DNA from: a virus
Reading direction: 5' to 3' (one strand)
DNA: 64,000 bases
IMG/VR virus record: IMGVR_UViG_3300032046_000013
Location: 22,228-86,227 of that record
Numbering within the stretch: the first letter of the stretch is position 1; every line of letters begins with the position of its first letter. The notes under the pieces are model-generated. The model was not told the origin of the DNA, made no database searches, and saw only the letters and a program-made list of their open reading frames with translations. The translations under genes and the position numbers were made by a program. This document shows, piece after piece, positions 4,027 to 62,800 of the stretch.

Positions 4027-4055
4027 AAATAACTTGGCCCGGAAACCCGCTCCGT

Positions 4056-6050: not shown

Positions 6051-6079
6051 AGAAAAATCGGCGAGGGAACCCGCTCCAT

Positions 6080-7093
6080 TCACGGGGCGGGAGGAATCGC
6101 CGCCTCCTTTCCGAGTCTTGTGATCCAATGTCCGCAGGCCCAAGCCAACTTCCGGGTTGACTGCCTGCGGCCCCGTTGATCGTAGTAGCGGTAGCCACCG
6201 CGATATTCGCCGCACAACCGACCCTGATTCCCGTCCGGGCGGCCTACCAGCAGTCCTTTCCGCAGTCCGAACACCGTGCCCTGGGAATATCGGGCGCGGA
6301 TTCCCCCTGGGGCTGGCTGGGTATCATGCAACTGCCGCCGCACTGGACGATACGTGTCGTCCACCACGATCATTCTTCCTGGCTCAATCCGCGAACCTTC
6401 GCCCGCTTCACAAGCTAAGGCCAGAGCATCCGAGCAATGAGCCTCGAACCGATCCGCATGTTTGTCCGCAATCTTCCGATAGCCGTATTGGAGCCGCAAG
6501 TCCTTCGTATCATAGCCCGCAAATTCATGCAGTTCAGCATGGGCCTCTATAAATTCCCGGATACGAGCCTTTCCGATCTCGACCGTGGAGAAGTTCGCAC
6601 CCCACCGTTTATGCGCATGGTCAAACCGCACGTCCTCTAATCCCACGGACTGAATCGGATAGCAGGAAAAAAACTTACGCAACATCTTCAACCGGGAGCC
6701 GACAATCATCGCCTGGGACGGGGCCAAAAATCCTGCGCGACTTCGGTTGTCGAACCGCTGGGGCCGTCTCCGACAATTACGGAACCTCCGCGCTCTTCGC
6801 AAATGCCGCCGTGCTTCCAACTTCTTCACCAATAACTTCTTGCTCGGCAAGTCCAACTTCACGGCCAAGTTGTTTTCCGTCCCGCACACCACGGCATAGC
6901 CCTCGAACTTCGTTCCGTGGTCCACCCCCAGCGTTGTTACCAGAGTCTCGTGTCGCGTCTCGACCAACATCTGAATCCCCATCTCGTTGAACCTGCTCCA
7001 CACGGGTTTCGCTACTCTGGCTCGCATCAGTTTCCTCGCCTTGGCAGGCGTCATGGGAGTCAATGGATGACCACCCTTGCTCACAACCCACAC
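6080..7093 (-). CDS. isrB: IsrB-like RNA-guided nickase (PLTP variant, no HNH)
   Basis: Has HPLTPM, GVDHGTK, RRARRFRNCRRR, GLEDVR, HCSDAL and RRQLH. The start codon is uncertain: GTG 7093 was chosen, and the frame is open to 7282. Confidence 0.8.
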   Translation of the reverse strand: MWVVSKGGHPLTPMTPAKARKLMRARVAKPVWSRFNEMGIQMLVETRHETLVTTLGVDHGTKFEGYAVVCGTENNLAVKLDLPSKKLLVKKLEARRHLRRARRFRNCRRRPQRFDNRSRAGFLAPSQAMIVGSRLKMLRKFFSCYPIQSVGLEDVRFDHAHKRWGANFSTVEIGKARIREFIEAHAELHEFAGYDTKDLRLQYGYRKIADKHADRFEAHCSDALALACEAGEGSRIEPGRMIVVDDTYRPVRRQLHDTQPAPGGIRARYSQGTVFGLRKGLLVGRPDGNQGRLCGEYRGGYRYYDQRGRRQSTRKLAWACGHWITRLGKEAAIPPAP

Positions 7094-10622: not shown

Positions 10623-11194
10623 TTCATCCCTCCTGTTTTTCTGCGTCCCCTTCCGGGAACGGTTTCCGCATCGGTGCGGCTCACCCCGAATAGTGCCGTC
10701 GATGACGGCGGTTCGGGAATCTCTGGTTCTGGCAAAGGAACTGGTGGTTCTGCTGGATTTGATGTTGACACTCTCCCAAGAGGTATGGTGCCTCCTTGAT
10801 TGCTTGGCCCATAACCATCGGTCGGCGGTCGATGTGGCGGAGACACTGACTGAGCGACCATACACAGAGCCAATGCCTTGTCCAAATCGGTGAATCGCCG
10901 CAGTTCTGCCGGTGTCCAATTTTGGAGATCAATCCATCCGTTCGGACTGAGACTGATCTTTTCCCGAGACGGTTTGACACTCCCCACGGCTAAAGCCGGG
11001 AGATTCTTCAGAGGCATGATGCCTCCAAACGGCTCTGCCCGAGCCTCAAGGCGCAGGGCGTTGCCCTCGGTATCTGAGCGGCGATTCCGGTCAAGCCCTG
11101 GTGGCGAGTTCAGAACCAACTTCGCCACCGTCACGTTGGTAAAAATTGTGCCTTTATCCAGATCAACCATCGAAAGGGAGGGGCGGGGTCTCAC
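10619..11194 (-). CDS. hypothetical protein, Pro-rich C-terminus
   Basis: ORF directly downstream of the major capsid gene in the same operon. Confidence 0.5.
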   Translation of the reverse strand: MRPRPSLSMVDLDKGTIFTNVTVAKLVLNSPPGLDRNRRSDTEGNALRLEARAEPFGGIMPLKNLPALAVGSVKPSREKISLSPNGWIDLQNWTPAELRRFTDLDKALALCMVAQSVSPPHRPPTDGYGPSNQGGTIPLGRVSTSNPAEPPVPLPEPEIPEPPSSTALFGVSRTDAETVPGRGRRKTGGMK

Positions 11195-11235: not shown

Positions 11236-12177
11236 TTAGGCGATGATGCTATGGGTCATCTTGGCCACGCCGTTGGCGCAGGTGATGGCCAAGCCGATCA
11301 GTTCGTAGCCCACGAGACCCAGGCGCAGATTCTTCGGATCATCCGCCGGGATCACGTCCACGTCTTTACGGATCGGCATCCATCCGCAGAACTTCGGAGT
11401 CGCCAGGACAAAGACTCGGCCCGCAGTGATCTGGTCCGACACGTAGTAGTCGGCTCCCCAGTGGGAACCCAGGTAGCCAGATTCCCGGACTTCCTGCATT
11501 CCGACCTGGTCCAGGTCCTGGAAAGTCCAACGCCGGATGCCTTGGGTGCCGTAGGGACTCATCAGAACTGCCGCTGGCACGAGCCGGTGCCGTTCCACCT
11601 CGGTAAAGAGCCGAGCCAGATGGTCCCGGTCCATGTAGGTGCTACTGGTGATCGCCGTGTTGTTGATCGTCGAGGCGGTATTCAAGGCACCGAACCCGAT
11701 GAGGTCCTCCCGGAGTTCCATCCCCTCGATCAGCCGGTCCTTGGCACGGTCCAAGGCCCGGAAACGCCGGGTGTAGAGTTCCCGGTAGGGAATCTGCGGA
11801 GTCGCCACGATCTCGAACGGTTCGACCTCTATGCGGGCACCCTTCATCTCGACCATCCGGTTGGTCCCGAATCGTCCGACCTTGACCGCCGGAACGTCCG
11901 GCAAGTCCTTGTCGTAGATCAGGGGCACGCCGTCCGGCATCTGCTCGATCACCACGAACTTCCGAAAGATGCCCTTGTAGTCGAGTTTGGTGCGAACCGG
12001 GTTGGCCATGTTCGCTGCGATCTTCCGCAGTCCCATCTCCGACTGCATGACCCGGGACAGCGCGGCCTCTTTCTGCATCAGCCGCTGGGCCTGTTGAACT
12101 CGGCCCTGGTGGGTCGAGTAATCGGGATGATACGACCGCCGATTCACGGTAGTTACGGGGGCACTTTGAGTTTTCAT
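11236..12177 (-). CDS. major capsid protein (HK97 fold)
   Basis: 313 aa with RTKLDYKGIFRK, PFEIVATPQI, LREDLIGF, VLMSP, WGADYYVS and GLVGYELIGLAI. It follows the protease, scaffold and decoration genes. Confidence 0.88.
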   Translation of the reverse strand: MKTQSAPVTTVNRRSYHPDYSTHQGRVQQAQRLMQKEAALSRVMQSEMGLRKIAANMANPVRTKLDYKGIFRKFVVIEQMPDGVPLIYDKDLPDVPAVKVGRFGTNRMVEMKGARIEVEPFEIVATPQIPYRELYTRRFRALDRAKDRLIEGMELREDLIGFGALNTASTINNTAITSSTYMDRDHLARLFTEVERHRLVPAAVLMSPYGTQGIRRWTFQDLDQVGMQEVRESGYLGSHWGADYYVSDQITAGRVFVLATPKFCGWMPIRKDVDVIPADDPKNLRLGLVGYELIGLAITCANGVAKMTHSIIA

Positions 12178-12722: not shown

Positions 12723-14945
12723 TCAATCATCCCACATGCTTTCCAGCGAATCCGTGAGTTCATCGCCGCCTTGAACCAACGGCAGATGTTGCGCGGTCTT
12801 TTTCAACCCCTGGACCGGCACGGGCCGGATGTCCTTGGCCATTGCCGCCACGTGCTCGAACTCCCCGGAAGTCATTTTCACGTAGTTTGCCACCTTTTCC
12901 GGTATCTCCATCTGGTCGATCTGCCCTTTTTCCAGAAGCAAGATAGCGACCTTCAGGGCCGGGCCTACCCGGGCTAACCGCTGATTTCTCGCCTCGATTT
13001 CGGCACTGAGCGCGGATGCGACTTTCAATACCGGAATCGCTTCGGCCAGACAACGATTAGCCAACTTCACGGCCTGTCCGATTTTCGCCCGATGCTCTTT
13101 AATCCCCGCCTTGTTTGGGCGGATTTTCATCAGGCTTTCGATCTGATCCCCCACTGTCTTCGTATTGACCATCAGGCCACTGATGGCCGAGGTCAAGTTC
13201 TTGGTGGTGGATTTCAGGGCCGCGTCTTTTTTCCACGAACTGGCCAATGCCCGTAGCTGATCATGCGTTCCGTCGAGGATTTTCAGCCGGGCCACGATTC
13301 CTTTTTTCTCCGCCGAGGTCATGGCCGTGGTGCCCGCCACATCCTCCCGATGTTCGGCATTCAGATAGGCATCGGCGGAGTTCGCCACTTGCTGGGTCTC
13401 GGGCGAGGTCAGGGAAGTATCCGAGCCTTGGGAAATTTCATCTGGTGTTCGGGTTCCCGCATCCGGGCCTGTGTATTCCGGGTGTTCGCCTGCGGGAACC
13501 GAAGCCGCGCCGGGATCGAGTTTCCGGTCCTCGGCCATCCGCAGATACCGCTGGAATTCCCGAACGGCTTTCCGATACTGGGCATTGGAAACCCGGATGG
13601 ATCGCGCATGTTTGCGTCCGATCTCCTGAACCGCTTTTTCAAATGTCAAGCCCGAGGCTATGCGCTTTTTGACCTCGGCCAAAGCCGAAGCCATGATTTT
13701 ATGGACAAACACTTTGGTGGATTCCACTTGTTTCCACCGACGATGTATGACCGATGCCTCGATTTGGTGTCGGACGTGCGCCTGATCCATCCCGGAGATC
13801 TGGAGTTTTTTCGCCTGTTTGATCATCGCCCTTCGATAGGCCCCCTTCATTTGCGCATAATCCGTATCCGAGGCCCCACCGAACTCCTGGGGCATTCGCG
13901 CTTTCGGCGTTGAAGGTGATCCAGTCCGAGCCTCCTGGGCCAGAGCCTGATCCGGGTCAGGACTTCGGGTCATGTCCGGGATATCGACCGCCGCATGGGG
14001 CACCTTGGGATTTGGTTCATTCGAGGCCGGGGTTCCCACATCGGCCCCGGTCTTGTTAGTGCGACCCATCGTTCGGGTTCCGCTACCTGATCGTTTACCG
14101 CCCTGGGATTCCAACGCCTGGATCGCGGATTGGGGATCGCCAAAATCATCAGACGGGCCAACCCGACTCATGGTCTTGGTATCGTAATATCCGACCGAAC
14201 CATCGCCTTGGACTATCGCTGTCAGGCCATCGGGCATCAGGTAACTTCCGTGAACTGTTGCTTGCTTGGCTCCGATGGTCGGAATCTCGGCCTTCTCTGC
14301 CACATCGGTCAAGGCTTTTAACACTTCCTGCTCGGTTTTCACCTGATCTGCCCGGGTTCTAATCTCCTCCTGGATGATCGCATCGGTGCCACCGCTGGGT
14401 TTGCCCGGGGCCGCTACCGGGGTTTCTGCCGGTTCTTCAGCTTCTTCTTTCGGCGCGGGTTCGCCCCCCAGTTCCGGTCCCTCGGCTGGTCTCTGGCCTG
14501 GCCCAGTGGGTTCGCCCTGGGCTTCTTTGGCCATCAGGTGCAGGGCCTCGGCATTGGCCGTGGCCACGGCGGTGATCGCTTGCACTTGCCGCTTCTTCAC
14601 GGCCAGAGTGTAATTGATGTCGGTTTCCTGCTTGGCCGTCTGCACCTGGGACCCGCCCATGCTGGCCACGGGCGGTGCTCCAGGTTCCCGAGTCTCCTGG
14701 GCCTGGGCCGCCACGGCCTGAGTCTGGGTTCCGTAATCCCCTGCGTCGTGCTGAGTCTGGATGTTCGACGCGGCCCGCACGTCCCCGCTTTCGGTTTGGG
14801 CCGTTTTTACTCCCGTTTTGATTCCCGCTTCCGCAGACTTCGCTTCCGCCGTCTTCATTTGTTCCTCCTGCAAGCCGAGTATTTTCCCAAGTTTCTTGAA
14901 TGATCGGCCAAGTGCGGCCTGACTCCGATCAACATTCTCCGCCAT
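12723..14945 (-). CDS. putative scaffolding protein
   Basis: 740 aa, low-complexity and coiled-coil, between protease and decoration/capsid genes. It has many KTA/KQA/KEA motifs. Confidence 0.65.
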   Translation of the reverse strand: MAENVDRSQAALGRSFKKLGKILGLQEEQMKTAEAKSAEAGIKTGVKTAQTESGDVRAASNIQTQHDAGDYGTQTQAVAAQAQETREPGAPPVASMGGSQVQTAKQETDINYTLAVKKRQVQAITAVATANAEALHLMAKEAQGEPTGPGQRPAEGPELGGEPAPKEEAEEPAETPVAAPGKPSGGTDAIIQEEIRTRADQVKTEQEVLKALTDVAEKAEIPTIGAKQATVHGSYLMPDGLTAIVQGDGSVGYYDTKTMSRVGPSDDFGDPQSAIQALESQGGKRSGSGTRTMGRTNKTGADVGTPASNEPNPKVPHAAVDIPDMTRSPDPDQALAQEARTGSPSTPKARMPQEFGGASDTDYAQMKGAYRRAMIKQAKKLQISGMDQAHVRHQIEASVIHRRWKQVESTKVFVHKIMASALAEVKKRIASGLTFEKAVQEIGRKHARSIRVSNAQYRKAVREFQRYLRMAEDRKLDPGAASVPAGEHPEYTGPDAGTRTPDEISQGSDTSLTSPETQQVANSADAYLNAEHREDVAGTTAMTSAEKKGIVARLKILDGTHDQLRALASSWKKDAALKSTTKNLTSAISGLMVNTKTVGDQIESLMKIRPNKAGIKEHRAKIGQAVKLANRCLAEAIPVLKVASALSAEIEARNQRLARVGPALKVAILLLEKGQIDQMEIPEKVANYVKMTSGEFEHVAAMAKDIRPVPVQGLKKTAQHLPLVQGGDELTDSLESMWDD

Positions 14946-15753
14946 GCTCTGCCTCCCCATCGAGTTGCTGGCCCAGCCGCTCAATCAAATGCGCCCAAAA
15001 CATTTTCCCATGTTCTGTCCGATCTTCAGCGGCGATCTTCCACAACGCACCATAGAGCCGATCCCCGGCGATCCAGAGTCCGACCGGGGTTTGCCTCAGA
15101 CCGGATGACGCGAGTTTGGCCAAGATTTTGGCGTTCTGATCCGCTCCCTCCGAGGTGGTGATGATAGAATTTTCAAAGAACACTACGCCCCGGTTCAGTT
15201 CCACCGCTTTTTTTTGTTGGAAATTCGTCGACGCATCGCAGATCATGGTGCCGCGTTTCGGAGGTCTGATGTGATCGCAGAAGTCCTGGGGCATGGCCGC
15301 GACGTTCCCACAGACGTTGCATACCGAGGTCGTGCACCAGGCTCCCATCGAAGTGTCGGTGATCCGCTGTTCCTGTATGGCCCGTTCGATCCCCGGTCGC
15401 CGGGACTCCGCGAGTTTCCGGTCCACGGCCATCAGGACCTTGACGTAATTCTGAGGCGTGTAAACCGCATCCGGGTTTGACCCGATCTTCAGGGATTCGT
15501 CCCAGTTCTCGTGATCCAGGCAGGCCCAGGAATCGACGAAAGTTCGGTAAGCAAGTTTCAGTTCTGCCCGCTCGAAGGCATCGTGATTTTCGTTCGAGCC
15601 GAAATCTTCCCAAGCTGACACTGCCCAGCTCTCAATATAGAAATTTTCTTCTGGATTCAGGGAAAAGCGAATAGCACTTTCTTTGAGTAGGCCCTGGACT
15701 TCGGCCTCGGGCCGGAGCCATAATTGATGGGATCGGGCAAATTTGAAAAACAT
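14929..15753 (-). CDS. prohead (capsid maturation) protease with Zn ribbon
   Basis: Has NENHDAF...YRTF...LDHEN, TSMGA (candidate catalytic Ser), CNVCG...CDH and FFENSII...AD. It sits at the head of the capsid operon. Confidence 0.8.
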   Translation of the reverse strand: MFFKFARSHQLWLRPEAEVQGLLKESAIRFSLNPEENFYIESWAVSAWEDFGSNENHDAFERAELKLAYRTFVDSWACLDHENWDESLKIGSNPDAVYTPQNYVKVLMAVDRKLAESRRPGIERAIQEQRITDTSMGAWCTTSVCNVCGNVAAMPQDFCDHIRPPKRGTMICDASTNFQQKKAVELNRGVVFFENSIITTSEGADQNAKILAKLASSGLRQTPVGLWIAGDRLYGALWKIAAEDRTEHGKMFWAHLIERLGQQLDGEAEHGGEC

Positions 15754-15995: not shown

Positions 15996-16044
15996 AAGAG
16001 ATTCGTTTTGACGAATCAAATTTGTTTCATTGAGGTTAAAAATC
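15996..16044 (-). promoter_or_regulatory. putative late promoter/activator site, copy 1
   Basis: 49-bp match (1 mismatch) to 46573-46621 containing the palindrome GATTCG-TTTTGA-CGAATC. It lies directly upstream of the head operon. Confidence 0.7.
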
Positions 16045-17351: not shown

Positions 17352-18258
17352 CGAAAAACCGATCATTCCCGTCCATCAATGGACTCACGACGGCGACAAA
17401 GTGCTCTTAATCAAGTGCATCAACGCTGACGGCACCAGTGGCCCAAAAAACGAATTCATCTGGCCTAAATCCGGTCCAGTTAAAAGTCCCCAGTGGGACG
17501 GGAAGCCGACCTGCGATGGTGGTGGTTTATTCGGTTGGCCGTGGGGAATCGGAATAGGCAGTGGAAAGGACCCAGATTATCAGGGAATCTGGATCGTGTG
17601 GGCAACTGACCCAAACAGGATTATCGTGGTTGATAATGAAAAGACGAAGGCCCCGGATGGAGAAGTGCTTTACTATGGGGAATGGGTCGGAGCTTTTCGG
17701 ATGGTGCTGCAAGGGCAGATTGCGTGGATTCAGCAATCATCAAGGGGGGCCGCAAGTGCCACGGGTGGGCAGGGGGCCGCAAGTGCCACGGGTTGGCGGG
17801 GGGCCGCAAGTGCCACGAGTTGGCAGGGGGCCGCAAGTGCCACGGGTTGGCAGGGGGCCGCAAGTGCCACGGGTTGGCAGGGGGCCGCAAGTGCCACGGG
17901 TAGGCAGGGGGCCGCAAGTGCCACGGGTTGGCAGGGGGCCGCAAGTGCCACGGGTAGGCAGGGGGCCGCAAGTGCCACGGGTTGGCAGGGGGCCGCAAGT
18001 GCCACGGGTGAGCAGGGAATCGCCACCATCACCGGAGACGAAGGCACAATCGAGGTTGGCTTTGGCGGTATTGCAGCGGTCTGTGCGAAAGTTGTAATCT
18101 GGAAAGTTCATAAAGATGCCGTGCTGATTCAACGATGGAAAGATTTCCGGAACCATTACCAAACGGCAGTGCTCTATCCCAAAAAACTTCGGCTAAAAAC
18201 TGGACGGGTAGTCAAGGTAGTTAAGGGAAAAATCCAGAAGAAGAATTCTCATGGCTGA
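17344..18258 (+). CDS. phage protein with GAASATG beta-solenoid-like repeats
   Basis: N-terminal F-x-WPKSG...[12 protein letters not shown] domain followed by ten 9-aa GAASATGxQ repeats. Confidence 0.75.
17746..18015 (+). repeat. 10 x 27-bp coding tandem repeat
   Basis: Unit GGGGCCGCAAGTGCCACGGGTTGGCAG with variation confined to the last codons of each unit. Confidence 0.95.
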
Positions 18259-19761: not shown

Positions 19762-19965
19762 ATGAAGAAACTTTATGCAGTCAAACATTTCCGTTCCGCG
19801 ACGCTGAAGATCATCGAGCAGGCAAATCAGATCATCGCCGAGTATCATGCGCAGGGATTTGAGTTGAAACTACGGCAACTGTATTATCAACATGTGGCTA
19901 GGGGCTTCATCCCCAACACTGACGCGGAATACGGCAAGTTGGGATCGGTCATCAACGATGCGCGG
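19762..19965 (+). pseudogene. N-terminal remnant of a topoisomerase VI-A/TOPRIM-like phage protein
   Basis: LKLRQLYYQ...IPNT..EYGKLGSVINDAR, after which similarity stops abruptly before the methyltransferase. Confidence 0.6.
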
Positions 19966-20020
19966 TGCTTTGCAGTGAGCTCCGCTCCCTTTCCACAAAG
20001 AACTGGAAGGAGATTCACGC

Positions 20021-20698
20021 ATGACTGCTGGCAGAACGGTTAATTCACTGAGTCAGGATTGGGGAACACCCAAGAAATATGTTGATGCGGTGCGTCGGGT
20101 TTTCGGAGGTGAAATTTATCTTGATCCATGCGCCAACCACTACGCCATCGTTAATGCCAAAAATGAATATCGTCTTCCGGAACACAATGGGCTAAGGGAG
20201 TCTTGGAAATTTCCAACGATTTATGTCAATCCTCCTTATGGAGCGGACCGGCAAAGAGGCACTACGATCAAGCACTGGCTGCACAGATGCGCCGAGGCGC
20301 ATAAAAAGTATGGATCAGAGGTTTTGGCACTGGTACCGGTTGCCACCAATACTGGTCATTGGAAAAATTACATATGGGGCAGAGCGACTGGCGTTTGTTT
20401 TTTGTATGACACGCGACTCCGATTTCTTGTGAATGGAAAAGACGAAGGAAAAGGCGCCCCAATGGCCTGTGCCATGGTCTATTGGGGTAAGAATTATGAA
20501 AAATTCATGGAGGTTTTTCTGGAGTTTGGATCTGTGATTGATCTACGAACACTTCAAGGAAAGAAAATTGGACAGAAGGATCGCTCTGCGGCTAGCCTTG
20601 AACATGGATCAGGTAAAAAAATTCAGCCCGCCACCGAACCCAGCGAAACTCACGGATTCCCGATACCAGGGTTACATGGAAAAATATGGAGTAGATAG
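20021..20698 (+). CDS. phage DNA N6-adenine methyltransferase
   Basis: Has DWGTP, LDPCA, YVNPPYG, LVPVATNTGHW and RLRF. GC is lower than in the flanks. Confidence 0.85.
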   Translation: MTAGRTVNSLSQDWGTPKKYVDAVRRVFGGEIYLDPCANHYAIVNAKNEYRLPEHNGLRESWKFPTIYVNPPYGADRQRGTTIKHWLHRCAEAHKKYGSEVLALVPVATNTGHWKNYIWGRATGVCFLYDTRLRFLVNGKDEGKGAPMACAMVYWGKNYEKFMEVFLEFGSVIDLRTLQGKKIGQKDRSAASLEHGSGKKIQPATEPSETHGFPIPGLHGKIWSR

Positions 20699-20864
20699 TT
20701 GGGAACTCGATGCGCTGGAACCCCGGATTTTGGCCGACTTGATAAATGACGAGATTGAAGACCTGCATAATGAGCAAGTGTGGGAGGCTGCGATCTCGAA
20801 AGAAACGGGCTATCGGAAGGAACTGCACAATGCGGCCCGGATACTGGCCAAGAGGAGTAAGTAA
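20590..20864 (+). pseudogene. C-terminal remnant of the same TOPRIM-like protein
   Basis: RLALNMDQV...PPNPAKLTDSR...SWELDALEP. The central TOPRIM core is missing. Confidence 0.6.
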
Positions 20865-20865
20865 T

Positions 20866-21756
20866 ATGTCCTCGGTGATCCAAAAGTTATGCGCTGACCA
20901 ACTGGTGACTCCCCCGGCTTTCGTAGCGACCGCGACTCAGTATGAGGTCGTGACGGGTTCCGTCGCTTATGGTATGGCGGACGAATCCTCGGATTGGGAC
21001 ATCTATGGATTTTGTATCCCATTCAAGGAAATGATCTTTCCCCACTTGCGGGGCGAAATACTGGGCTTCGGTCATCAGATTCAGCGGTTCGAGCAATGGC
21101 AAAAGCATCGTGTGGAGACCCCGAAGCACCAGTATGATCTCCAAATCTATTCCATCATCAAATACTTCCAGTTGTGCATGGAGAACAATCCAAACATGAT
21201 CGACACTCTGTTTGTGCCACAGCGGTGCATCCTCCACTCGACCAAGATCGGGAACATGGTGCGGGAGGCTCGGCGGTCATTCCTTCATCGCGGGTGCTGG
21301 CACAAATTCCGGGGCTACGCTTTTTCCCAGTTGCACAAGGCTCAGCAACAGGAGAGGGAAGGCAAGCGCAAGGACGACATTGAGCAATTCGGGTGGGATC
21401 GGAAATTTCTAAGCCATGTAGTTCGACTAATCAATGAGGTTGAACAGATTCTGGCCGAGGGCGATCTGGACTTGGAGCGGAACCGCCAGATGGTTGCCGC
21501 CGTCCGATCCGGGGAATGGTCCCTGACCCAAGTTCAAGAATGGTTTAATGTTAAGGAAAAAACAACGGAAGAACTATACGCTCAATCGAAGTTGCCCTGG
21601 GGACCGCCCGAAGATCAGATCAGGCAGTTATTGTTCGCCTGCCTAGAAGAACATTTCGGCTCCCTGGATCAGGTAATTGTCCAACAAGATCGAGCAATCT
21701 CGGCCTTGCGAAAAATCGAAAACATCGCGCAGGAAACCCTGAGAATCCGAGAATAG
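20866..21756 (+). CDS. Pol-beta-superfamily nucleotidyltransferase (RlaP/Nuc-transf-like)
   Basis: Has GSVAYG...SDWDIYG, NNPNMIDTLF, FRGYAFSQL and KFLSHVVRL. AGGAG RBS before ATG 20866. Confidence 0.8.
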   Translation: MSSVIQKLCADQLVTPPAFVATATQYEVVTGSVAYGMADESSDWDIYGFCIPFKEMIFPHLRGEILGFGHQIQRFEQWQKHRVETPKHQYDLQIYSIIKYFQLCMENNPNMIDTLFVPQRCILHSTKIGNMVREARRSFLHRGCWHKFRGYAFSQLHKAQQQEREGKRKDDIEQFGWDRKFLSHVVRLINEVEQILAEGDLDLERNRQMVAAVRSGEWSLTQVQEWFNVKEKTTEELYAQSKLPWGPPEDQIRQLLFACLEEHFGSLDQVIVQQDRAISALRKIENIAQETLRIRE

Positions 21757-23324: not shown

Positions 23325-26060
23325 TCACCCCTCCTCAGTGGCCTCAGCCACACCTTCCTCGGGAGCCGGAGCGATCTCCGTCCCGCCGCCCGGGGGAGCC
23401 ACAGCCCCACTGGGAGTCGCACCCCCAGGCACTGTCCCTGTCTCCTCGGCCTTGGCCGTTCTCGCAGCTTTATACACTGGGTCAAACGGGGTGCCTTCCT
23501 CTTCCTTAAAATGCTTTTTCACCGTATTGTAATCCAAGTCCAGGATTTCACAGATAGTCCTCATCGGCAAATCCGGGCTGGTTCCCTGACGAAGCTGGAC
23601 CAGAAACTGAATTCTCTGGCTTTCATTCGTCAGGTCTAGCTTGAAATTCCACTCGATGTCGGGAACAATGACTTTCCGATCCTTCTTGGGTCGACGAATC
23701 CGATGCGATAACTCGGCTGGCGTCGTTTCGTAAAAGCCATGATGCCGGGCCAGGGGTTCAAAAATCTTTTTGACCATCAACCGTCGCAGGTTTTCCCGCT
23801 TGGTCTGATATCTTCCCTGAATCACTTTCATCGCCACCACGGCCCCGGCCTGAATCGCTGGACCTTCGCCCGAGGTCATGGCTTTGTTAGTATAGAGGCC
23901 AGTGAGTATCCTCGACTCCACCCATTCAAATTCGGGTATGACGGGCAATAGGTGGCCCGTATATCCGATGAGGTCCAAATTGACCGCCGCATGGGTCACG
24001 ATCTGGAACAACGGATCGTGTGCTCCAGCTTCGAGCATAGCCCGGAAAGTCAGCAATTCCTGGGAGGTCGGCATGTATCCGCTCGCCGCATCCCCGAGTT
24101 TCCATAGCTGGATGGGCGTGATATGGTGGTCAGCTATGGCGTATTGCACTTCCCGAAGTTTGTCCTCGTAAAGAAGGTCTTTCAAACAATTAGCTACTTT
24201 TTTTCCACCCGCCACAAATGTATGATTCGGAGCATCTACGGTAATGCAATGGGTTTCTCCATGATACTCCCTGGATTGAACTTTCTTGACTCTGGTAAAT
24301 AAATATCCGTCCCGGACATAATTTTCAAAACTGAATCGCTTGGTAGGACTTCTCCTGAATCGCACCGAATAAATAACCCTTCCTTTGTTATTTCTTGTAA
24401 TGGTTTCGACTTTGCATGGATAGTCATTTCTGTGCTTTTGCAAGGATGACCAAATACCGAGCCTCAATAACAGAAACTGCAATTGGTGGGCTAGAGTCAG
24501 ATTGGCAGTTGAAATGCGCTCTGTTCCCTCGGGAACCTGATGTCCGTCCGCATCAAACCATCCTTGGATAAACTGCTCCAATTGGGCACGAGGAAGGTTT
24601 ATGATTTCCTGACTCAGGCGTTTGGTTTTACAGGTTAATCCGCCCAATAGTTCTTCATATCTGATCCTTAACTTGTGATTACAAAAAGATACCCTCCAAT
24701 AGTTCGGCTGTTGCAAAACCCGGTAATGCACTCCCTGGCTATCGAGATAACTCTTAATCCGGGATTGAACATTCATGCCTACCCCAGAAGTGCAACCACA
24801 GAAGTTCATTTCCCATCGACCCATTCGGGAACCATCACCAAGAAAATATCCCAATATCCAGGGATCGACTTCAATCGGTTTTTCCTCTACGACTGGAAGG
24901 GGCGTAAGCATATAATCCCATTTTTGTAGATCACCAGCTGGAATTTCCTCTATCTTGCCACCGAATCTTTTGCATGTCGGGGGATCGCAAGTATAATGTT
25001 CTGGGGTCCGGGACGCACCACAATGACTGCCATTGCTATACATGTGTGGACAAGTTTTCATCCGCCCCCGAGTTGGCCTCATGGCAAAAAACTTATGGTC
25101 ATTCGTAGCCTCGATTTTGCTCCCCAGTGAATCTTCAATAGTGATGATCTTTTCTGGATTACTGTTCTTATGAACTGCTACCACATTGGTCAGTTTTCCG
25201 TCTCCATCCAACACAACATCACCGATCATTATGTCTTTGATCGGCTTTCGTGCTCCATCGGCTAACCAAACCATGGTATCGGGTGTAAAGCATCGAAGCA
25301 AGATAGAGGTTCCCCGGGTATCGTAGGGTGACCCCCTGCGGATCAGGCTCAGCACGTTGAACTCCGACAAGGGAATCCGATCATTGTTATAGATCGCGTC
25401 CAGAACCACGGGGTCCATGTTCTGTAGTGCTTCCTGAACCCGCTCGGATTGGCTATGAACCACTTTCTTTAATTCCTGTTCCGGTTCATAGGAATAAATC
25501 ATTTCCCGCTTGCCAGCCCAGTTGATCATCTGAATGTCCAGCAGGTCGGGATTCAACATCCGGCCCTCATCCCACATTCCGTCATCTTCATCGAAGGGGA
25601 AGAACTCCGAAGCCTCGCCGATCAATTCATATTCTCTCGATGTTTCAAAGCAGTAACCTACGAGATTCGCCCGCTCCTTCTGCTGTTCGTAGAAATCCAG
25701 AATCTCGTCATCCTCAATCTCGGTCAGCCGGAAGTCCGAGATCGGGAACTCCCCGTGCATGTCAATCGCGTTTCCGATCATCGGCTGGAAGCGGTCATAA
25801 TATCGAATCCACTGATTCAGGGTCCGCCGGTCATACGGGAGATAAAAGTTGACGAGATTGAGCAGGGGTGACCGAATTTCCGGGCTGGAATAAGTTACAT
25901 TCGTCGATCCGCTTTTGCCTATTGTTCCACCCGCATGAACTATCAATGGTCCAGGTAATGGCTCTCTTTCAGCCCGAACAGAACCCACTGATCCCTGTTT
26001 TGCCATCCGAAATTCCCGATCCAGATTATCAGTGATGATTGCCATCTGATTTTTTCTCAC
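23325..26060 (-). CDS. portal protein containing an intein
   Basis: Has WIRYYDRF.PMIGNAIDMHGEFP, SPYDTRGTSILLR|CLKDLLYEDKL, PIQLWKLG and LPMRTICEILDLDY. It lies between terminase and head genes. Confidence 0.8.
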   Translation of the reverse strand: MRKNQMAIITDNLDREFRMAKQGSVGSVRAEREPLPGPLIVHAGGTIGKSGSTNVTYSSPEIRSPLLNLVNFYLPYDRRTLNQWIRYYDRFQPMIGNAIDMHGEFPISDFRLTEIEDDEILDFYEQQKERANLVGYCFETSREYELIGEASEFFPFDEDDGMWDEGRMLNPDLLDIQMINWAGKREMIYSYEPEQELKKVVHSQSERVQEALQNMDPVVLDAIYNNDRIPLSEFNVLSLIRRGSPYDTRGTSILLRCFTPDTMVWLADGARKPIKDIMIGDVVLDGDGKLTNVVAVHKNSNPEKIITIEDSLGSKIEATNDHKFFAMRPTRGRMKTCPHMYSNGSHCGASRTPEHYTCDPPTCKRFGGKIEEIPAGDLQKWDYMLTPLPVVEEKPIEVDPWILGYFLGDGSRMGRWEMNFCGCTSGVGMNVQSRIKSYLDSQGVHYRVLQQPNYWRVSFCNHKLRIRYEELLGGLTCKTKRLSQEIINLPRAQLEQFIQGWFDADGHQVPEGTERISTANLTLAHQLQFLLLRLGIWSSLQKHRNDYPCKVETITRNNKGRVIYSVRFRRSPTKRFSFENYVRDGYLFTRVKKVQSREYHGETHCITVDAPNHTFVAGGKKVANCLKDLLYEDKLREVQYAIADHHITPIQLWKLGDAASGYMPTSQELLTFRAMLEAGAHDPLFQIVTHAAVNLDLIGYTGHLLPVIPEFEWVESRILTGLYTNKAMTSGEGPAIQAGAVVAMKVIQGRYQTKRENLRRLMVKKIFEPLARHHGFYETTPAELSHRIRRPKKDRKVIVPDIEWNFKLDLTNESQRIQFLVQLRQGTSPDLPMRTICEILDLDYNTVKKHFKEEEGTPFDPVYKAARTAKAEETGTVPGGATPSGAVAPPGGGTEIAPAPEEGVAEATEEG
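24189..25292 (-). mobile_element. intein (368 aa) with LAGLIDADG homing endonuclease
   Basis: N-terminus CFTPDTMVWLADG, block B ATNDHKF, LAGLIDADG motifs ILGYFLGDGS and FIQGWFDADG, and C-terminus HTFVAGGKKVAN followed by C+1. GC is low. Confidence 0.9.
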
Positions 26061-26499: not shown

Positions 26500-29400
26500 C
26501 TACTGGGTAAAACGCGCAGACTGTTTGACCTTACCTTTTGGAGTCTGGGGCTTGCCACTCTGCTCCCATACTTCTTTGGCGATCTGATAGACTTCGATGC
26601 CTTGCTTGGATAGACCCTGGAAAAGTCCTTCATGGAACTGCTCCATCAGATCGTAATACCGATCTAGCTGTTCCTCGAAGCCTTCCTCGCCCGCCACAAG
26701 GTCTCCAGCCAAGTCCATGACCTGCTGACTGTAAGTATCGAGATCGGCATTGCGGCCCAGATATTCCAGCCACGCCTGCACGAGGTCTTCGGAATGGTTG
26801 GCATATCGCAGTTGGCCAGTCATTTCTTCCCGAACCTGATCGGCGGAAACGGCTATGCCAGCTTCGGCGGCTTGGACACCCACATCGTAGGCCCCGCCAC
26901 CAGCCCCGATTTTCCGCCTTGATGTTTTCTCCGGGGCCTGGGGTTTCCTTGGAGTCTTTCCCTTTGGACGCTCGGGCACCAGTTGGCGAGCCAATTTCCA
27001 AACATTGATCCCGCGTTCGCCTAATCCCGCGTCCACGCCTTCCCAAAAACCTTCTGAGATTTCCAGGTGATCCTCCACCATATCTTCGCCTTCGCCTTCG
27101 GATTGCTCTACAACCTTCCGCAGATGCGACGCAAATTGGTCCGTGCTCTCCCATGATTGTTGCCAGTGTTGAACCAAGCTCTCCGCGTCATCGCCCGGCC
27201 CCATCTTATCCAAGTCCTGCTCCATCTGCTTAAGGATGTCGTCGGCAGATTCAAACATCCAGGCATCTTGAGCCGCATGAAGACCGGCCTGATATGCGAG
27301 ATTCCGAATATCCGGAGTGCCCCCGACTTTCCGCCTTGATGTTTTCTCCGGGGCCTGGGGTTCGCCTTCGGTGTCGGGTTCGACAGCGAAGAAATTGAGC
27401 GTGACATCAAGCAGTTGCTGGCCGATTCCCGAAACGCCTTCTTTTAATTTCCCCTCATCCGCATAGGCACCCAAGTCATACGGGGGCATCGCGCCGAATC
27501 TCAGTGGCTCACCGATACCTTCTTCGCTTGATTCGATTATGGCATTGTAAAGCGGGGACTCAGGCGTAGCATCGAAACTCCCGCTCAAGTCTCCATCATG
27601 ATCATGACCTTCATTTTGCGCCCAGTTCACAACGGTTTTCAGCCATGCTTCGGTGTTTTCCTCCAATAGGGCGACATCCTGATTCAATTGGTCCCAAGCC
27701 GCGTCGTCGAGAGTGATCCCCCGTTCCTCGGCGTTCTGCTCGATCTCAAATTGATCCGTGGTGCTGATCGAGAATCCACCTTTGATCGGCCCCTGGTAGT
27801 CGTCTGGGAGAGTGGCGGTCTTGCGCTGGCCCATTTTTTCTAATTCATTCCAGTCGCTTTCGCTACTGAGATATTCCTCTCGCTCTTGGTCTTCATCCCA
27901 CTCGATTACCACGCCTTCGATGCCATTGTAGGGTGGGTTGACCTCGATAACTCTCCCGATTCGACCTGACTGATCTTTCACTTCATCTCCAAGCCTGAAT
28001 GGATTCACGGCAGTCTTGCGCTGGCCTTCCACTTCATTTCCGCCACCCGAGTAGGTATCAATGGAATCCCGGACTTCCTGGATTTCCTGCGCGACTTCGC
28101 CCGTCGCTTCCGCCGCCACGGAGTTCACGAGGTTCTCCACCATTTCCAGTTCATCCGGTTCAAAGCCCCGCAAGTCCTCGCCATCGAGGATGCGCTGGAT
28201 ATTCTGGATCACATCGGTCTGGCCCCGGTCGGATTTTTGGGTCAACAGCGTCGCCAGTGGCCCGAACTTGGCCCCGACCTTGCGCCGACCTTCCTTGCGC
28301 GGCTTGACCTCGCCCCCGCCTTTCAGGTCTGGCGACTTCATCGTCCGGTCATCCACCAGATTCTTCTCCGGGTCCTGACCCCTCCGCTTGTATTCTTCTC
28401 TGAGCAGATTCAGTTCCCCCTGTTCGGTAATGGTCAGGGACTTCGCGGCTTCCCTCTGTTCGAGCCGTCCGATTGACTGAGCCAAGACTTTCGAGGGAAT
28501 GCTCTGGAAGTGCTTGGTGTAATGGTCGGCCTCCTTTTTCGTCGGTATGATCTCGGCCAGCACCTGATCCCGGAACAGGTCCTCCGCTGTGTCGCGCAGG
28601 GTAATGCCCGTGACGTGGGTTGAGGCGGCCCGGAACAGGCCCCCGATGCCCTGGGTGGCCATAATGCCTTCGGGCGTCTGGTCCCCGCGTTTGAGGGCTT
28701 CCCGAAGGTATTCCATGTCCCCCCGGCGTTCCCGTTCCAGGGCTTGCCAGACCTGATGGGCGTTTTTCTCGAAATACCGATCAAAGACTTGGCGATCCGA
28801 CTGCATGGCCTGGAGACGACGGCGCATCCCCTCGGCTTCGTGACCCGTGACTTCGGTGATGCGGATGGTAATATGACTCAAGGTTCCACCTTCGCCAGAA
28901 TTATCCGCCATACCCAAGGCTCCACCTTCGGCTATCGCAACCTGGTTTCCTGACTGATCTGAGATTCCGAAATACAGGGAACTCGTGAAATTCACCCAAC
29001 CCTGATTCGGGTCCACTTCATCGACCTCGGTGTTGATTCCATCTGGGGCGAATTCCGCATGGTAAGTGCCTTGGCCGAACTCCCGATCCAGAATGAAGTT
29101 CACGTTCTCCTCGATCAGATCGTTACGACCCCGACTATCCTCAAACTCCGCATCGATGTCTTCCAGTTCAAACTCCGCACCGAGTCCGAGCGAGAAGTCG
29201 AAGCCTTCCTCCAACTTGGCCCCGTGCTTGCGCATCCCCATTTTTCCGCCCTCGACTTTCTCCAGATTGCCATCTCCGAGGTTAACCCCGATAGCCCCCA
29301 AGGCCCATGTTCCCTTCCGACCCGTTGGTTGCAGTTCCTCATCCAGATATTCAACCGTGGCCACGAAACTATCCCAGCGGGCTTCGGGAATATCAGCCCG

Positions 29401-31116
29401 ACTGCCCGTGTCGGTGATATTGGTGATCCTGAATGACTTAAAGCCTGATCCTTGAAAAACATCACCGACCCGAATCTGCTCGATCAACTGGTTATAATCT
29501 GGTTTCCTGGCCCCTTTCTTACCCCCAGGCTGACGGTCCGCCATCGGACGGCCCGAGCTGGAATTGGGCCGGCAGCCGAAAATATCGCCTCCGCCGGCGT
29601 CCATCCCCTCATCCTCTGCCGTGCTCGCGGTCTGGTCAGCCACTGCAACCGCATGTTTGCATTTCCGGCCATGCTCACCGGCGGGACAGGAACAGGCCCA
29701 TCGCCGCAACTCGCCGTCCATTCCGAGAAACCGGACCTCATAGACGTTGCCGGAATCGCTGTGCACCGCCCAGGTTTCGTTTTCGCCGTTTTTTTCGATT
29801 TTCACCACGTGCTCGAAACCTGGGGGAGTAACCGAGAATTTGAGACTGGCCTGGAGTTTCTTTCCGCCCCGGGCCAGCAGTTGTTCAATCGCACTCTGGG
29901 GATCGTCGCCAAGTTTATCGGTCTTGGTGTCGCCGCCCCACCGATTGGGTTGGGAGATTTTCACCGGCCTCAGCACATGGGTCGGTCCATATTCGTAATA
30001 TCCGACCGAACCATCGCCCTGGACTATCGCCACTTCTCCGTCAGGCATCTGGTAGGCTCCATGAACCGTAGCTTGTTTGCGTTGGCCCATGTTGATCGTG
30101 CCTGATCCGACTCGCTTGCCGCCCTGCCTCACCAATTCCTGTATGGCTTTGCGCGGACCACCGAAATCATCAATCGGAGTATCGGTATGTTGCATCGTCT
30201 TGGCATCATAATATCCGACTGATCCGTCACCGCTTACTCTGGCGAGTTCCCCGTTGGGCATCAGATACATCCCGTAAGTCGAGCCTTGCTTGCTCCAGGC
30301 AGTCCGCAGAATGCGCGTGGCCTCTTTCGCTTCCTCGGCTTCCGGTTCGGGTTTCTTCGACTTCTCGCTCGGACTCGGTTTGGAATCCGAATTCTCCCCA
30401 AACGCTTCCGCCGTGGCCTCATCGATCAGTTTCTGACCATCCAGACCCTGGGAATCTGCGACCTCCACCAGTTTCTCCTGATGACTCTGCTCATCCAGGA
30501 TGATCTCGTCCACGAGGCCCTCGGCCTCCCCGTTTTCATCCGAGGTCAGGGACTCCGCGAGTTCCTGATATTCGCCTGGAGCCTTCACTTCATCGACCAT
30601 CGCATCCTCAATCAGGTCTTTCAATTCGGACTCCCCGGGTTCCGTTTCCTCGGTTTCCGGTGTCCGTTCCTCTTCCGCATGTTTCCGCATTTTCTTCTCT
30701 CCTTGTTTCGTCCCATAACCCGCGCTTTCCAGGACATCCAGAGCCGCCCGTGAACCGATGCTCCGCAAGATCAGCGTATAAACTCCCGCATTCTCCGTAT
30801 CGTAATTCAACTGGGCTTCCAGAATCGGCACGGCCCGATCTCCAAATTGCACGACAGTCCGATATGCGCCCGATTTCAGGCTGGCATCCGGGCTTTCAAT
30901 AACTTCACGCAATAAGTCGGTGATCGTTTCCTCAATATCGGGACGGCGAGATCGTTTGGGCACATCATATCCTTCACGTCGCGCCATGTCATAAGCAATA
31001 GCCGCCGCTTGTTCCTGGGATTTGCCTTCGCCAATCAATTTTTTGATCTTTTGGCTGATCCACGCTTGAGCCTCGTCCGTGAGTTTGGCCCCGATCTTAC
31101 GCACTTCGTTTCTCAT
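26500..31116 (-). CDS. 1538-aa acidic mosaic protein, putative internal head polyprotein
   Basis: About 14 small modules (HEAT-like, ferritin-like, two GDGSVGYY domains, SWIM, SH3-like) separated by RKIGA/RKHA/RKQA/RKTA/RKVG-type linkers. Confidence 0.7.
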   Translation of the reverse strand: MRNEVRKIGAKLTDEAQAWISQKIKKLIGEGKSQEQAAAIAYDMARREGYDVPKRSRRPDIEETITDLLREVIESPDASLKSGAYRTVVQFGDRAVPILEAQLNYDTENAGVYTLILRSIGSRAALDVLESAGYGTKQGEKKMRKHAEEERTPETEETEPGESELKDLIEDAMVDEVKAPGEYQELAESLTSDENGEAEGLVDEIILDEQSHQEKLVEVADSQGLDGQKLIDEATAEAFGENSDSKPSPSEKSKKPEPEAEEAKEATRILRTAWSKQGSTYGMYLMPNGELARVSGDGSVGYYDAKTMQHTDTPIDDFGGPRKAIQELVRQGGKRVGSGTINMGQRKQATVHGAYQMPDGEVAIVQGDGSVGYYEYGPTHVLRPVKISQPNRWGGDTKTDKLGDDPQSAIEQLLARGGKKLQASLKFSVTPPGFEHVVKIEKNGENETWAVHSDSGNVYEVRFLGMDGELRRWACSCPAGEHGRKCKHAVAVADQTASTAEDEGMDAGGGDIFGCRPNSSSGRPMADRQPGGKKGARKPDYNQLIEQIRVGDVFQGSGFKSFRITNITDTGSRADIPEARWDSFVATVEYLDEELQPTGRKGTWALGAIGVNLGDGNLEKVEGGKMGMRKHGAKLEEGFDFSLGLGAEFELEDIDAEFEDSRGRNDLIEENVNFILDREFGQGTYHAEFAPDGINTEVDEVDPNQGWVNFTSSLYFGISDQSGNQVAIAEGGALGMADNSGEGGTLSHITIRITEVTGHEAEGMRRRLQAMQSDRQVFDRYFEKNAHQVWQALERERRGDMEYLREALKRGDQTPEGIMATQGIGGLFRAASTHVTGITLRDTAEDLFRDQVLAEIIPTKKEADHYTKHFQSIPSKVLAQSIGRLEQREAAKSLTITEQGELNLLREEYKRRGQDPEKNLVDDRTMKSPDLKGGGEVKPRKEGRRKVGAKFGPLATLLTQKSDRGQTDVIQNIQRILDGEDLRGFEPDELEMVENLVNSVAAEATGEVAQEIQEVRDSIDTYSGGGNEVEGQRKTAVNPFRLGDEVKDQSGRIGRVIEVNPPYNGIEGVVIEWDEDQEREEYLSSESDWNELEKMGQRKTATLPDDYQGPIKGGFSISTTDQFEIEQNAEERGITLDDAAWDQLNQDVALLEENTEAWLKTVVNWAQNEGHDHDGDLSGSFDATPESPLYNAIIESSEEGIGEPLRFGAMPPYDLGAYADEGKLKEGVSGIGQQLLDVTLNFFAVEPDTEGEPQAPEKTSRRKVGGTPDIRNLAYQAGLHAAQDAWMFESADDILKQMEQDLDKMGPGDDAESLVQHWQQSWESTDQFASHLRKVVEQSEGEGEDMVEDHLEISEGFWEGVDAGLGERGINVWKLARQLVPERPKGKTPRKPQAPEKTSRRKIGAGGGAYDVGVQAAEAGIAVSADQVREEMTGQLRYANHSEDLVQAWLEYLGRNADLDTYSQQVMDLAGDLVAGEEGFEEQLDRYYDLMEQFHEGLFQGLSKQGIEVYQIAKEVWEQSGKPQTPKGKVKQSARFTQ
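29533..29804 (-). repeat. 272-bp copy of the SWIM zinc-finger gene at 54307-54578
   Basis: Direct alignment by eye gives 3 mismatches in 272 bp. Confidence 0.95.
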
Positions 31117-45090: not shown

Positions 45091-45999
45091 TCAGTGAACC
45101 GTTAAGGGCGACATATCGGAATCGCTGTCCCCGCGAAAAATTTTCACCGCTTGGCCCCGGGTCTTGATTTCGTTGAGGTTCCGCACTAGAAAATCCGATT
45201 CGTCTCTCGGGCTGGAAATCGCAATGAACTTATAATCCAGGGGAAATCGCGTAATCTGCGAAGCCCGGATACCCTGGGCGATTTCCTGCGCCACGTCATG
45301 ATCCGGGGTCTCATCAAAGTGCGAGGCTTCATCCACGCATCCGTAAAATATGTTGAAACCGTAAAACGCTTGGTATCCCGAATGACCGCAGACTGCCAAA
45401 ACATCGTTCGGAAATCTGATGTCCCGCGTATTGATCTGAGCATTGGCGAAGCACGCGGAGTATTTGATCATGGATTTCAATTCCTGGAAGATCACGCCCT
45501 GAGCTTCGGTGGCGGAGATGCTCATGTTCAACATGAGGATGAATACCCCGGGAGCCGTATGATAAATTTCCCGGACGGCTGGATAAGAGTTGAGGATAAA
45601 GGCCCCACGAGACAGGAGACCCGAACAAATATGGGATTTGCCCACGCCCTTGCCCGCGCAGATATAGACTTCCCTGACCGTCGGATCATCCGCCGCCATC
45701 ATGATGTCCATAATCCGGGGATAGGTCTCTCTCCGATTCATGTATTTCCGGCTTAACATGAACTCATCCATCGGGGGAATCCGTCTCGCTGGTTCAAAAT
45801 TGCGCAGGCTGATGTTCCGCAGGTCCGCAGAAATCTCCAGTGTCTCCCAGGCTTTGCGCTGGAGCCGTTTTACGATGTCGGTCTGGCCTTGGGCGATCAA
45901 TTCCAGAACCTCCAGTAATTGCCGACGATGACTTTCAGACAAAGAACCCGAGGCGAGAATCCGCTGCAGTTTCTCCATCTCTTTCCCCGCCTCGGTCAC
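45091..45999 (-). CDS. terL: terminase large subunit, N-terminal ATPase part (split gene)
   Basis: Walker A AGKGVGKS, NMSISATEAQGVIF, Walker B CVDEASHF and motif III ISSP. It directly follows TerS and ends after 302 aa. Confidence 0.8.
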   Translation of the reverse strand: MTEAGKEMEKLQRILASGSLSESHRRQLLEVLELIAQGQTDIVKRLQRKAWETLEISADLRNISLRNFEPARRIPPMDEFMLSRKYMNRRETYPRIMDIMMAADDPTVREVYICAGKGVGKSHICSGLLSRGAFILNSYPAVREIYHTAPGVFILMLNMSISATEAQGVIFQELKSMIKYSACFANAQINTRDIRFPNDVLAVCGHSGYQAFYGFNIFYGCVDEASHFDETPDHDVAQEIAQGIRASQITRFPLDYKFIAISSPRDESDFLVRNLNEIKTRGQAVKIFRGDSDSDMSPLTVH

Positions 46000-46538
46000 C
46001 GATCACCCCCAAATTCATCCAACAGGGCCTGGGCCTGCTCGGGAGTCAACTTCGATAGGTCTTCAAGCAACCCGCGCCCCGAGGTCTCTGCTGGAAGCTC
46101 CGGGGCTTCTTCTGGCGGTTGGATAGCTGGGGACAAGAACCTCAGACCCCGGAGAACCTCAATCGCGGCTTTGAGCCGGATCGCCGCCTTGCTGTTTCCC
46201 AGTTCCGCAAGAATAACTTGCACCGCCTTGGTGGCCCCGGCCAGTAACTGATCGTGAACCGCGAGCCGGACTTCATACCGCAATCGTTGTAATTCGATCT
46301 CAAACGCTGGCTCAGCCATCCAAACATACAGGGTCTGCCGGTGAACCTGGATTTCCTTCGCAGTCGCGGTGAGGCTCTGGCCCGAGGCCAATAAATAGGC
46401 AGCTCTTTCCTGCCGGGAATTCAAAAGTGTCAGATTGTGTCCACAATTGTTTGTTTGGTTTTCTGCCAGAATTTCACCCTGAACAGGACTTTCTTGTATG
46501 TTTTCCGTGGGTTGAGTTGTGTTTTGACCTTCAGGCAT
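45996..46538 (-). CDS. terS: terminase small subunit (HTH)
   Basis: LNSRQERAAYLLASG...TAKEIQVHRQTLYVW..PAF and IRLKAAIEVL, overlapping the TerL-N start. Confidence 0.7.
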   Translation of the reverse strand: MPEGQNTTQPTENIQESPVQGEILAENQTNNCGHNLTLLNSRQERAAYLLASGQSLTATAKEIQVHRQTLYVWMAEPAFEIELQRLRYEVRLAVHDQLLAGATKAVQVILAELGNSKAAIRLKAAIEVLRGLRFLSPAIQPPEEAPELPAETSGRGLLEDLSKLTPEQAQALLDEFGGDR

Positions 46539-46572: not shown

Positions 46573-46621
46573 AAGAGATTCGTTTTGACGAATCAAATTT
46601 GTTTCATTGAGGTTGAAAATC
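46573..46621 (-). promoter_or_regulatory. putative late promoter/activator site, copy 2
   Basis: Near-identical to 15996-16044, about 35 nt upstream of terS. Confidence 0.7.
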
Positions 46622-54294: not shown

Positions 54295-54579
54295 TTAACA
54301 ACCGTAACGGTCCGCCATCGGACGGCCCGAGCTGGAATTGGGCCGGCAGCCGAAAATATCGCCTCCGCCGGCGTCCATCCCCTCCTCCCCGGCCGTGCTC
54401 GCGGTCTGGTCAGCCACTGCAACCGCATGTTTGCATTTCCGGCCATGCTCACCGGCGGGACAGGAACAGGCCCATCGCCGCAACTCGCCGTCCATTCCGA
54501 GAAACCGGACCTCATAGACGTTGCCGGAATCGCTGTGCACCGCCCAGGTTTCGTTTTCGCCGTTTTTTTCGATTTTCAT
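54295..54579 (-). CDS. SWIM zinc-finger protein
   Basis: VHSDSGNVYEV...WACSCPAGEHGRKCKH fits CxC...CxH. AGGGGG RBS before ATG 54579. Confidence 0.8.
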   Translation of the reverse strand: MKIEKNGENETWAVHSDSGNVYEVRFLGMDGELRRWACSCPAGEHGRKCKHAVAVADQTASTAGEEGMDAGGGDIFGCRPNSSSGRPMADRYGC

Positions 54580-62745: not shown

Positions 62746-62800
62746 ACCATAATGATACCACGCTTGGAACCGGATATCAAGAATTATTTTTACCCCCTCT

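Follow-up and report, generated by a model that had tools for sequence, protein, structure and literature searches.

A free SWIM-domain gene of a phage-G-like myovirus and its near-identical in-frame copy within a large open reading frame of the packaging/head block

The mosaicism of phage genomes arises by illegitimate recombination, and proteins held inside phage heads can be cut by a protease, the internal proteins of T4 among them. Several described systems come close to the locus considered here. Polyvalent proteins, known from phages and conjugative elements, were assembled from domains that also occur in solo form, as Iyer et al. (2017; PMC5512222) describe them; they are encoded with portal and terminase genes, and are probably packaged, to be delivered along with the DNA. 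Giant phages such as SPN3US and phiKZ are reported to package many proteins in the head, where a prohead protease processes them at a recurring motif, sometimes with several cuts in one precursor (PMC10052503). Composite (mosaic) genes have been described for viruses in general terms (PMC4202312). We analysed a window of 64,000 nucleotides (nt), bases 22228-86227 of the 86,227-base IMG/VR record IMGVR_UViG_3300032046_000013, which has no end repeats and a CheckV completeness of about 60%. The record belongs to an uncultured sediment phage that carries a tail sheath gene and is a phage-G-like myovirus. In it a small stand-alone gene for a SWIM zinc-finger protein is accompanied by a near-identical copy of itself, which lies in frame within an open reading frame (ORF) of 1538 amino acids (aa) among the packaging and head genes.

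The two copies, at 29533-29804 and 54307-54578 (positions are those of the window), are direct repeats of 272 nt, both on the minus strand, with 3 mismatches (98.9% identity; blastn E 1.5e-134), as an earlier note on this DNA had stated and as comparison of the record with itself bears out. In that comparison, which covered the whole 86 kb, the SWIM pair is the strongest dispersed repeat and the only near-identical one longer than 80 nt. Its edges are abrupt on both sides, and the four flanks are unrelated, having short matches at chance level only, to one another or elsewhere; neither terminal repeats nor a target duplication were found at the repeat, and a search for flank homology or filler DNA at the junctions returned only such chance-level matches. 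Sharp edges, unrelated flanks and freedom from terminal repeats and target duplication are what a simple segmental duplication by illegitimate recombination presents. The earlier note also set one edge of the copy at the start codon of the free gene and the other ahead of its last three sense codons, and this holds. At the 5′ edge the codon is ATG in the free gene (54577-54579) and GTG in the large ORF (29803-29805), where it is in frame as residue 438 of 1538, and of the start codon only TG is common to both loci; the 3′ edge lies 9 nt before the donor stop, and the copy thus spans residues 1-91 of the 94-aa free protein, without its three C-terminal residues and its stop. The start itself carries a caveat, in that upstream of 54579 the frame stays open and holds two further ATGs in phase, and the public gene call (P0004, 120 aa) takes the ATG at 54657 as its start. 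We nevertheless favour the ATG at 54579, to which three features point: a G-rich Shine-Dalgarno-like run shortly before it, the upstream gene's stop codon at 54644-54646, and the two closest homologues, whose starts align with it.

The three mismatches (29611, 29615 and 29617, opposite 54385, 54389 and 54391) all fall inside 7 nt. One is synonymous and two are replacements, giving A-E-D-E in the large ORF where the free gene has A-G-E-E; read on the coding strand, with the free gene as the starting state, the substitutions are C to A, G to A, and G to T. SWIM domains are defined by zinc ligands arranged as C-x-C...C-x-H. Like the small stand-alone SWIM proteins of PF04434, the free protein and the copy both pass the curated Pfam cut-off of 19.6 bits, the former with 27.1 bits and the latter with 22.1 bits (residues 467-493 of the large ORF), and both keep the four ligands, C38, C40, C49 and H51, which are invariant across 76 aligned sequences.

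The family to which the free protein belongs gives the direction of copying. An exhaustive HMMER search with this protein across 1.84 billion representatives (E<=0.001) returned 89 matches, one of them the free gene itself under its 120-aa call. Among the 88 non-self homologues, 75 are 56-131 aa long, 6 are 147-229 aa and 7 are at least 369 aa; the best ten are free proteins of 78-108 aa. Five of the seven longest matches were read: four are repeat proteins that are unrelated, and the fifth, of 414 aa, has a SWIM domain at its N terminus. Nothing comparable to a module of a phage giant ORF was found among the 88. All 15 relatives that were fetched with their DNA (3 from IMG/VR and 12 from metagenome contigs) lie in stop-to-stop frames of 85-172 codons, two of which touch a contig end, and relatives of the free gene's four neighbours were present at none of these 15 loci. 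The homologue P0005 (95 aa, 58% identical) has its last five residues in common with the free gene, among them the three missing from the inserted copy, and agrees with the free copy at both replacement mismatches; a second homologue, P0006 (78 aa), has as its first residue the aligned methionine of the free gene. Since the family is overwhelmingly one of small stand-alone proteins, and since the closest homologues share the free gene's N-terminal start and C-terminal end, we regard it as settled from these comparisons that the free gene represents the ancestral form and the module a derived copy, as the earlier note had supposed. A profile of the SWIM subfamily matched solved structures only through spurious EGF-like hits.

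Donor and recipient stand in different parts of the genome. The free gene is flanked on one side by a gene for an SMC/RecF-like AAA_23 ATPase and on the other by a 129-aa ORF, beyond which lies a DNA methyltransferase gene; its wider neighbourhood holds DNA methyltransferases, a DnaD-like loader, the AAA_23 ATPase and a TnpB gene, and lies outside the packaging/head block. From this place in a DNA-metabolism module we infer that the free gene is expressed early; a scan for promoters and terminators around it gave nothing above shuffle level that bears on timing. Members of the SWIM domain family bind DNA or proteins, which is the sole basis on which a role for the free protein could be guessed. 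The TnpB gene (56470-57600; OrfB_IS605 with a Cas12f1-like TNB domain) lies at a distance of 1.9 kb from the free gene; further upstream than TnpB is a 175-aa ORF of a transposase family (62332-62859). The candidate small terminase gene marks the start of the packaging/head block, which places the recipient inside that block and the donor outside it.

The recipient ORF is built of modules, most of them acidic, and is an orphan over most of its length. Its first ~50 residues match phrog_2423 (function unknown) and, weakly, DUF6496, both of them profiles of about 50-60 positions; in Pfam only SWIM passes the curated cut-off, with HEAT_2, DUF6496, Rubrerythrin and DUF7553 below threshold. Two of its modules are homologous to one in a scaffold-like protein of the same block, with a 38-nt patch bearing 1 mismatch in DNA that is elsewhere about 66% identical, and near-identical linker repeats (42 nt, 98% identity) recur within the ORF. 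The basic pattern R-K-x-[G/A]-[A/T/G/S], often after M-G, is present 7 times in the ORF, where shuffled sequences lead one to expect 0.27, and an eighth variant can be seen by eye only; about 110 other ORFs hold four occurrences between them, one of which, an M-G-x-R-K-x-A-A copy at residues 48-55 of the capsid protein, is near a possible maturation cut. The adjacent portal gene, the module held in common with the scaffold-like protein, and the single appearance of the motif in the capsid protein together make it plausible that the ORF encodes a packaged polyprotein cut by a protease. The linkers that the earlier note placed on either side of the SWIM copy are present as basic stretches in the translation, but they hold only degenerate versions of the motif, and the SWIM copy sits inside an inter-motif piece of ~283 aa that also contains an orphan module and one of the scaffold-like modules.

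A perfect 25-nt inverted repeat (29179-29203 and 30355-30379, arms 1151 nt apart) also lies within the 1538-aa ORF. Between its arms lie both scaffold-like modules, the SWIM copy and the module after it, and no target duplication was seen with the repeat. An invertible coding switch at this repeat was considered and rejected: inversion yields 9 in-frame stops. The coordinates of the main features are collected in Table 1.

Table 1. Positions of the SWIM gene, its copy, and genes of the packaging/head block (window coordinates)
Feature	Position	Strand	Remarks
Free 94-aa SWIM gene (donor)	54295..54579	minus	ATG 54577-54579 after G-rich ribosome-binding-like run
Inserted SWIM copy	29533..29805	minus	Residues 438-528 of 1538-aa ORF; GTG for ATG; zinc ligands C-x-C...C-x-H intact
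Mismatch cluster (sole three differences)	29611..29617 (partners 54385-54391)	minus	Free version equals P0005 at both replaced positions
Multi-module orphan ORF P0001 (recipient)	26500..31116	minus	A 113-aa ORF and the portal gene follow directly downstream
Two tandem ~75-aa modules just upstream of SWIM copy	29857..30309	minus	Homologous to module of scaffold-like protein (58% and 50% aa identity)
Major capsid protein	11236..12177	minus	phrog_2522, 3.5e-43; 39% identity to Bacillus phage G capsid protein
Scaffold-like protein P0003, 753 aa, between protease and capsid genes	12723..14984	minus	Shared module 14061-14285; scaffold role from position only
Head maturation protease candidate	14929..15753	minus	phrog_18299, 5.6e-8; no Pfam match
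Portal protein with intein and LAGLIDADG endonuclease domain	23325..26060	minus	phrog_16240, 2.6e-47; intein about residues 256-620
Small terminase subunit candidate	45996..46538	minus	phrog_2538, 9.3e-8; start of packaging/head block

The free SWIM gene has been duplicated within this genome, and the copy lies in frame in the large ORF with its zinc ligands intact; we think it likely that it came there by ordinary recombination. A gene of the DNA-metabolism block would have given up the stretch running from the TG of its start codon to three codons before its stop, and this stretch would have been inserted in frame into a short basic spacer of the recipient in the packaging/head block. The likeliest route would be illegitimate (microhomology-level) recombination, or else template switching during replication, and selection would then retain only those insertions that are in frame, free of stop codons and placed between folded modules. 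Under such selection the 3′ edge must precede the stop codon, since the frame would otherwise be lost. The 5′ edge is less constrained: the donor frame runs upstream without a stop and only TG is common to the two loci, and other 5′ edges would therefore also have been tolerable, so that the position of this edge within the start codon amounts to a single coincidence. The recipient, for its part, would be a head-internal protein, with the repeated basic motif as the site at which the prohead protease cleaves it.

Other accounts of the pair have to be weighed against this one. The two copies might come from two co-occurring strains, or the repeat might have induced a chimera, for the record is a metagenome assembly of one sediment sample, and a single public run, a 2019 sediment metagenome that is possibly the source, holds the region. 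The Logan contigs of that run constitute an independent k-mer assembly, which we used for presence only and never to score absence. They end at the repeat edges, as expected from any k-mer assembly, and the flanks of the free gene are slightly shallower in them (10.4 and 9.1) than those of the large ORF (12.8 and 12). All four junctions are nevertheless supported by k-mers at similar depth, in four separate contigs each extending 30 nt into the repeat, and a separate 272-nt repeat contig has a depth of 27.3, about the sum of both loci; it follows that the four junctions are real in the reads and that the repeat occurs about twice per genome. The frame of 4617 nt continues unbroken through both insert junctions, and exchanging the flanks would remove 24.7 kb of essential head and packaging genes. 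No Logan contig bridging an empty insertion site was found, which is weak evidence, since contigs drop rare variants. An artefact of assembly or population thus seems to us quite improbable. An old duplication, whose copies have been held near-identical by repeated gene conversion, is unlikely but deserves somewhat closer attention; it would leave the direction of copying as it is and would contradict only the idea of a capture caught in the act. The 38-nt patch with one mismatch, in modules otherwise ~66% identical, resembles a conversion tract, the 42-nt linker repeats in the large ORF are 98% identical, and the three mismatches are clustered as at the edge of a patch. Yet a 272-nt island with razor-sharp ends at the start of an ORF is no more simply explained by conversion than by a young copy, and decayed homology beyond the edges was not seen. 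The very recent duplication that the earlier note proposed is thus a real duplication, and its 99% DNA identity would fit either a very recent copy or one kept fresh by conversion.

The same note took the boundary at the start codon as a hint of a directed or RNA-templated route, and we find nothing in support of this. Capture of the precise ORF, templated by RNA or guided by a nuclease, might be suspected from a 5′ edge within the start codon, a 3′ edge 9 nt short of the stop, and the presence of mobile pieces, among them a TnpB gene 1.9 kb away from the donor; set against this, a copy of an mRNA would bring its untranslated leader and trailer sequence, and for that reason start-codon precision does not speak for an mRNA template. 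A search for RVT_1 (E<=0.1) gave no match in the 86 kb, in agreement with the note's remark that a reverse transcriptase is lacking, the record being about 60% complete. Diversity-generating retroelements leave adenine-specific differences between template and copy. The changes seen here are not adenine-specific, and with RVT_1 negative the locus shows the marks neither of retrohoming nor of such an element. An OMEGA-guide route was also examined and rejected, three of the four junctions sharing no 11-mer with candidate guide regions and the fourth a single one at chance level. Nor is there a pattern of ORF-precise edges, since the SWIM genes are the sole free-gene/module pair in the record: the self-alignment that the earlier note proposed yielded no further pair in the 86 kb, and tblastn and blastp comparisons of the large ORF and eight other ORFs of the block with the 86 kb found nothing beyond the SWIM pair and the module of the scaffold-like protein. 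We accordingly put little faith in directed capture, which we judge most improbable in this instance, and consider it very unlikely, if marginally less so, that the phage lineage repeatedly captures its own small non-structural ORFs with ORF-precise edges by a dedicated active mechanism, of which SWIM would be the newest product. The reverse direction, with the module of the large ORF ancestral and copied out as a free gene, is hardly credible. A G-to-A change would suffice to make the start codon, and a stop is reached after three more codons; but the usual form of the family is a small free protein, the closest homologue possesses the last residues that the module lacks, and the remainder of the large ORF is without homologues in the searches made.

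Relatives of the recipient ORF were looked for widely, among them the relatives without the module that the earlier note had hoped for, and none was found in the collections searched. The DNA and protein of the ORF gave no match to GenBank phages, and the ORF gave none in GTDB genome contigs and no usable match in a protein atlas. An IMG/VR peptide-pattern scan returned none for the recipient ORF and none for the portal N-extein; the same scan with the capsid protein returned one capsid relative, 38% identical (L005). A word-indexed search of 5.8 billion proteins, at near and shorter lengths, recovered only the phage's own free SWIM gene. In the records of three SWIM or capsid relatives, that of L005 among them, the ORF matched through its SWIM part only, in two of the three, and it matched none of five metagenome-assembled genomes with distant capsid relatives. 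The public protein collection files P0001 in a 90% cluster represented by P0004, the 120-aa call of the free SWIM gene, so that cluster-based searches do not show the large ORF as a representative.

Several observations weigh against the interpretation of a recombinational insertion into a packaged, protease-cut protein. Because no relative of the phage or of its large ORF emerged from these searches, neither an empty site nor the chemistry of the junctions can be read. The record holds only ~60% of the genome, and missing enzymes consequently carry little weight. The Logan contigs cannot pair the flanks, so that their pairing rests on the IMG assembly and the open frame; in addition, the Logan repeat contig is the large-ORF version and free of variants, and the three mismatches are known from the IMG assembly alone. 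As to cleavage, the protease assignment is weak (phrog_18299 at 5.6e-8; Pfam negative), and cuts at the strong motif would not free the SWIM copy alone. As for the motif copy in the capsid protein, neither phage G nor L005 conserves it in its own capsid protein; the region in which it sits is conserved among these proteins, and the copy may be there by chance; given this lack of conservation, the capsid site is suggestive only.

Other repeats occur elsewhere in the record. A 49-nt hairpin repeat (98%) occurs after the protease gene (15996-16044) and again just upstream of the small terminase gene (46573-46621); with one copy at the border between DNA metabolism and packaging, it is possibly a regulatory element. 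Ten tandem 27-nt units (17691-18068) lie in a plus-strand ORF of 304 aa, in a plus-strand block that interrupts the head module. A 78-nt repeat (97%) links 10973-11049, in the gene after the capsid gene, with record bases 233-309 at the far left end, and a 54-nt repeat (80%; 4024-4077 and 6048-6101) stands at the start of each of two paralogous HNH-endonuclease genes in the tail region. To the left of the window, at record bases about 19800-21300, an 847-aa ORF contains internal DNA repeats of 65-76%. Synteny with phage G at a decoration protein is weak (E 0.011). A split large terminase could not be confirmed, the ORFs concerned giving neither a PHROG nor a Pfam match.

What we describe is one event on one metagenomic contig, for which relatives were not found, and the process itself is an expected one; the locus is a single clean instance of a known evolutionary process, with parent and product side by side. 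It offers a starting point for asking which insertions a giant ORF of a virion block tolerates, whether the basic motif is a protease site, and whether pre-loading into the particle a protein that is normally expressed benefits the phage. If the recipient is indeed packaged, virions would now also contain a protein that the phage otherwise makes after infection. Were such capture to be repeated in this lineage, it would turn post-infection proteins into proteins delivered with the DNA. A full-text search for SWIM domains in phage virions produced no relevant paper, although supplementary domain lists may include SWIM.

Among known systems, the polyvalent proteins resemble the recipient in being large, multi-domain and encoded beside portal or terminase genes, according to the description in PMC5512222. 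The recipient also stands among virion and packaging genes, with the portal gene adjacent and the small terminase, protease and capsid genes in the same block. It departs from them in its domains: where polyvalent proteins have at least two recognisable effector or enzymatic domains, only SWIM passes Pfam here, and the MuF, metallopeptidase, ArdC and methylase-helicase domains given as hallmarks in PMC5512222 were not detected in it. It departs from them also in that one genome holds both the solo gene and its fused copy, 99% identical in DNA, and in that its modules are parted by a basic motif. For the cleavage that we suspect in the recipient, the processing seen in giant phages of the SPN3US type is the best parallel. 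In SPN3US and phiKZ, as presented in PMC10052503, the motif is common to capsid, portal and cargo, a likeness to the present block; there, however, the cargo consists of separate genes with N-terminal propeptides and the cleavage was found by mass spectrometry, whereas here one 1538-aa string is concerned and its cleavage would follow from the motif alone. With composite genes the locus has in common that a segment of one gene family has been joined into another. Composite phage proteins built from solo genes are usually recognised from diverged families across genomes, whereas in this phage the donor and its product are found together in one genome, with exact breakpoints.

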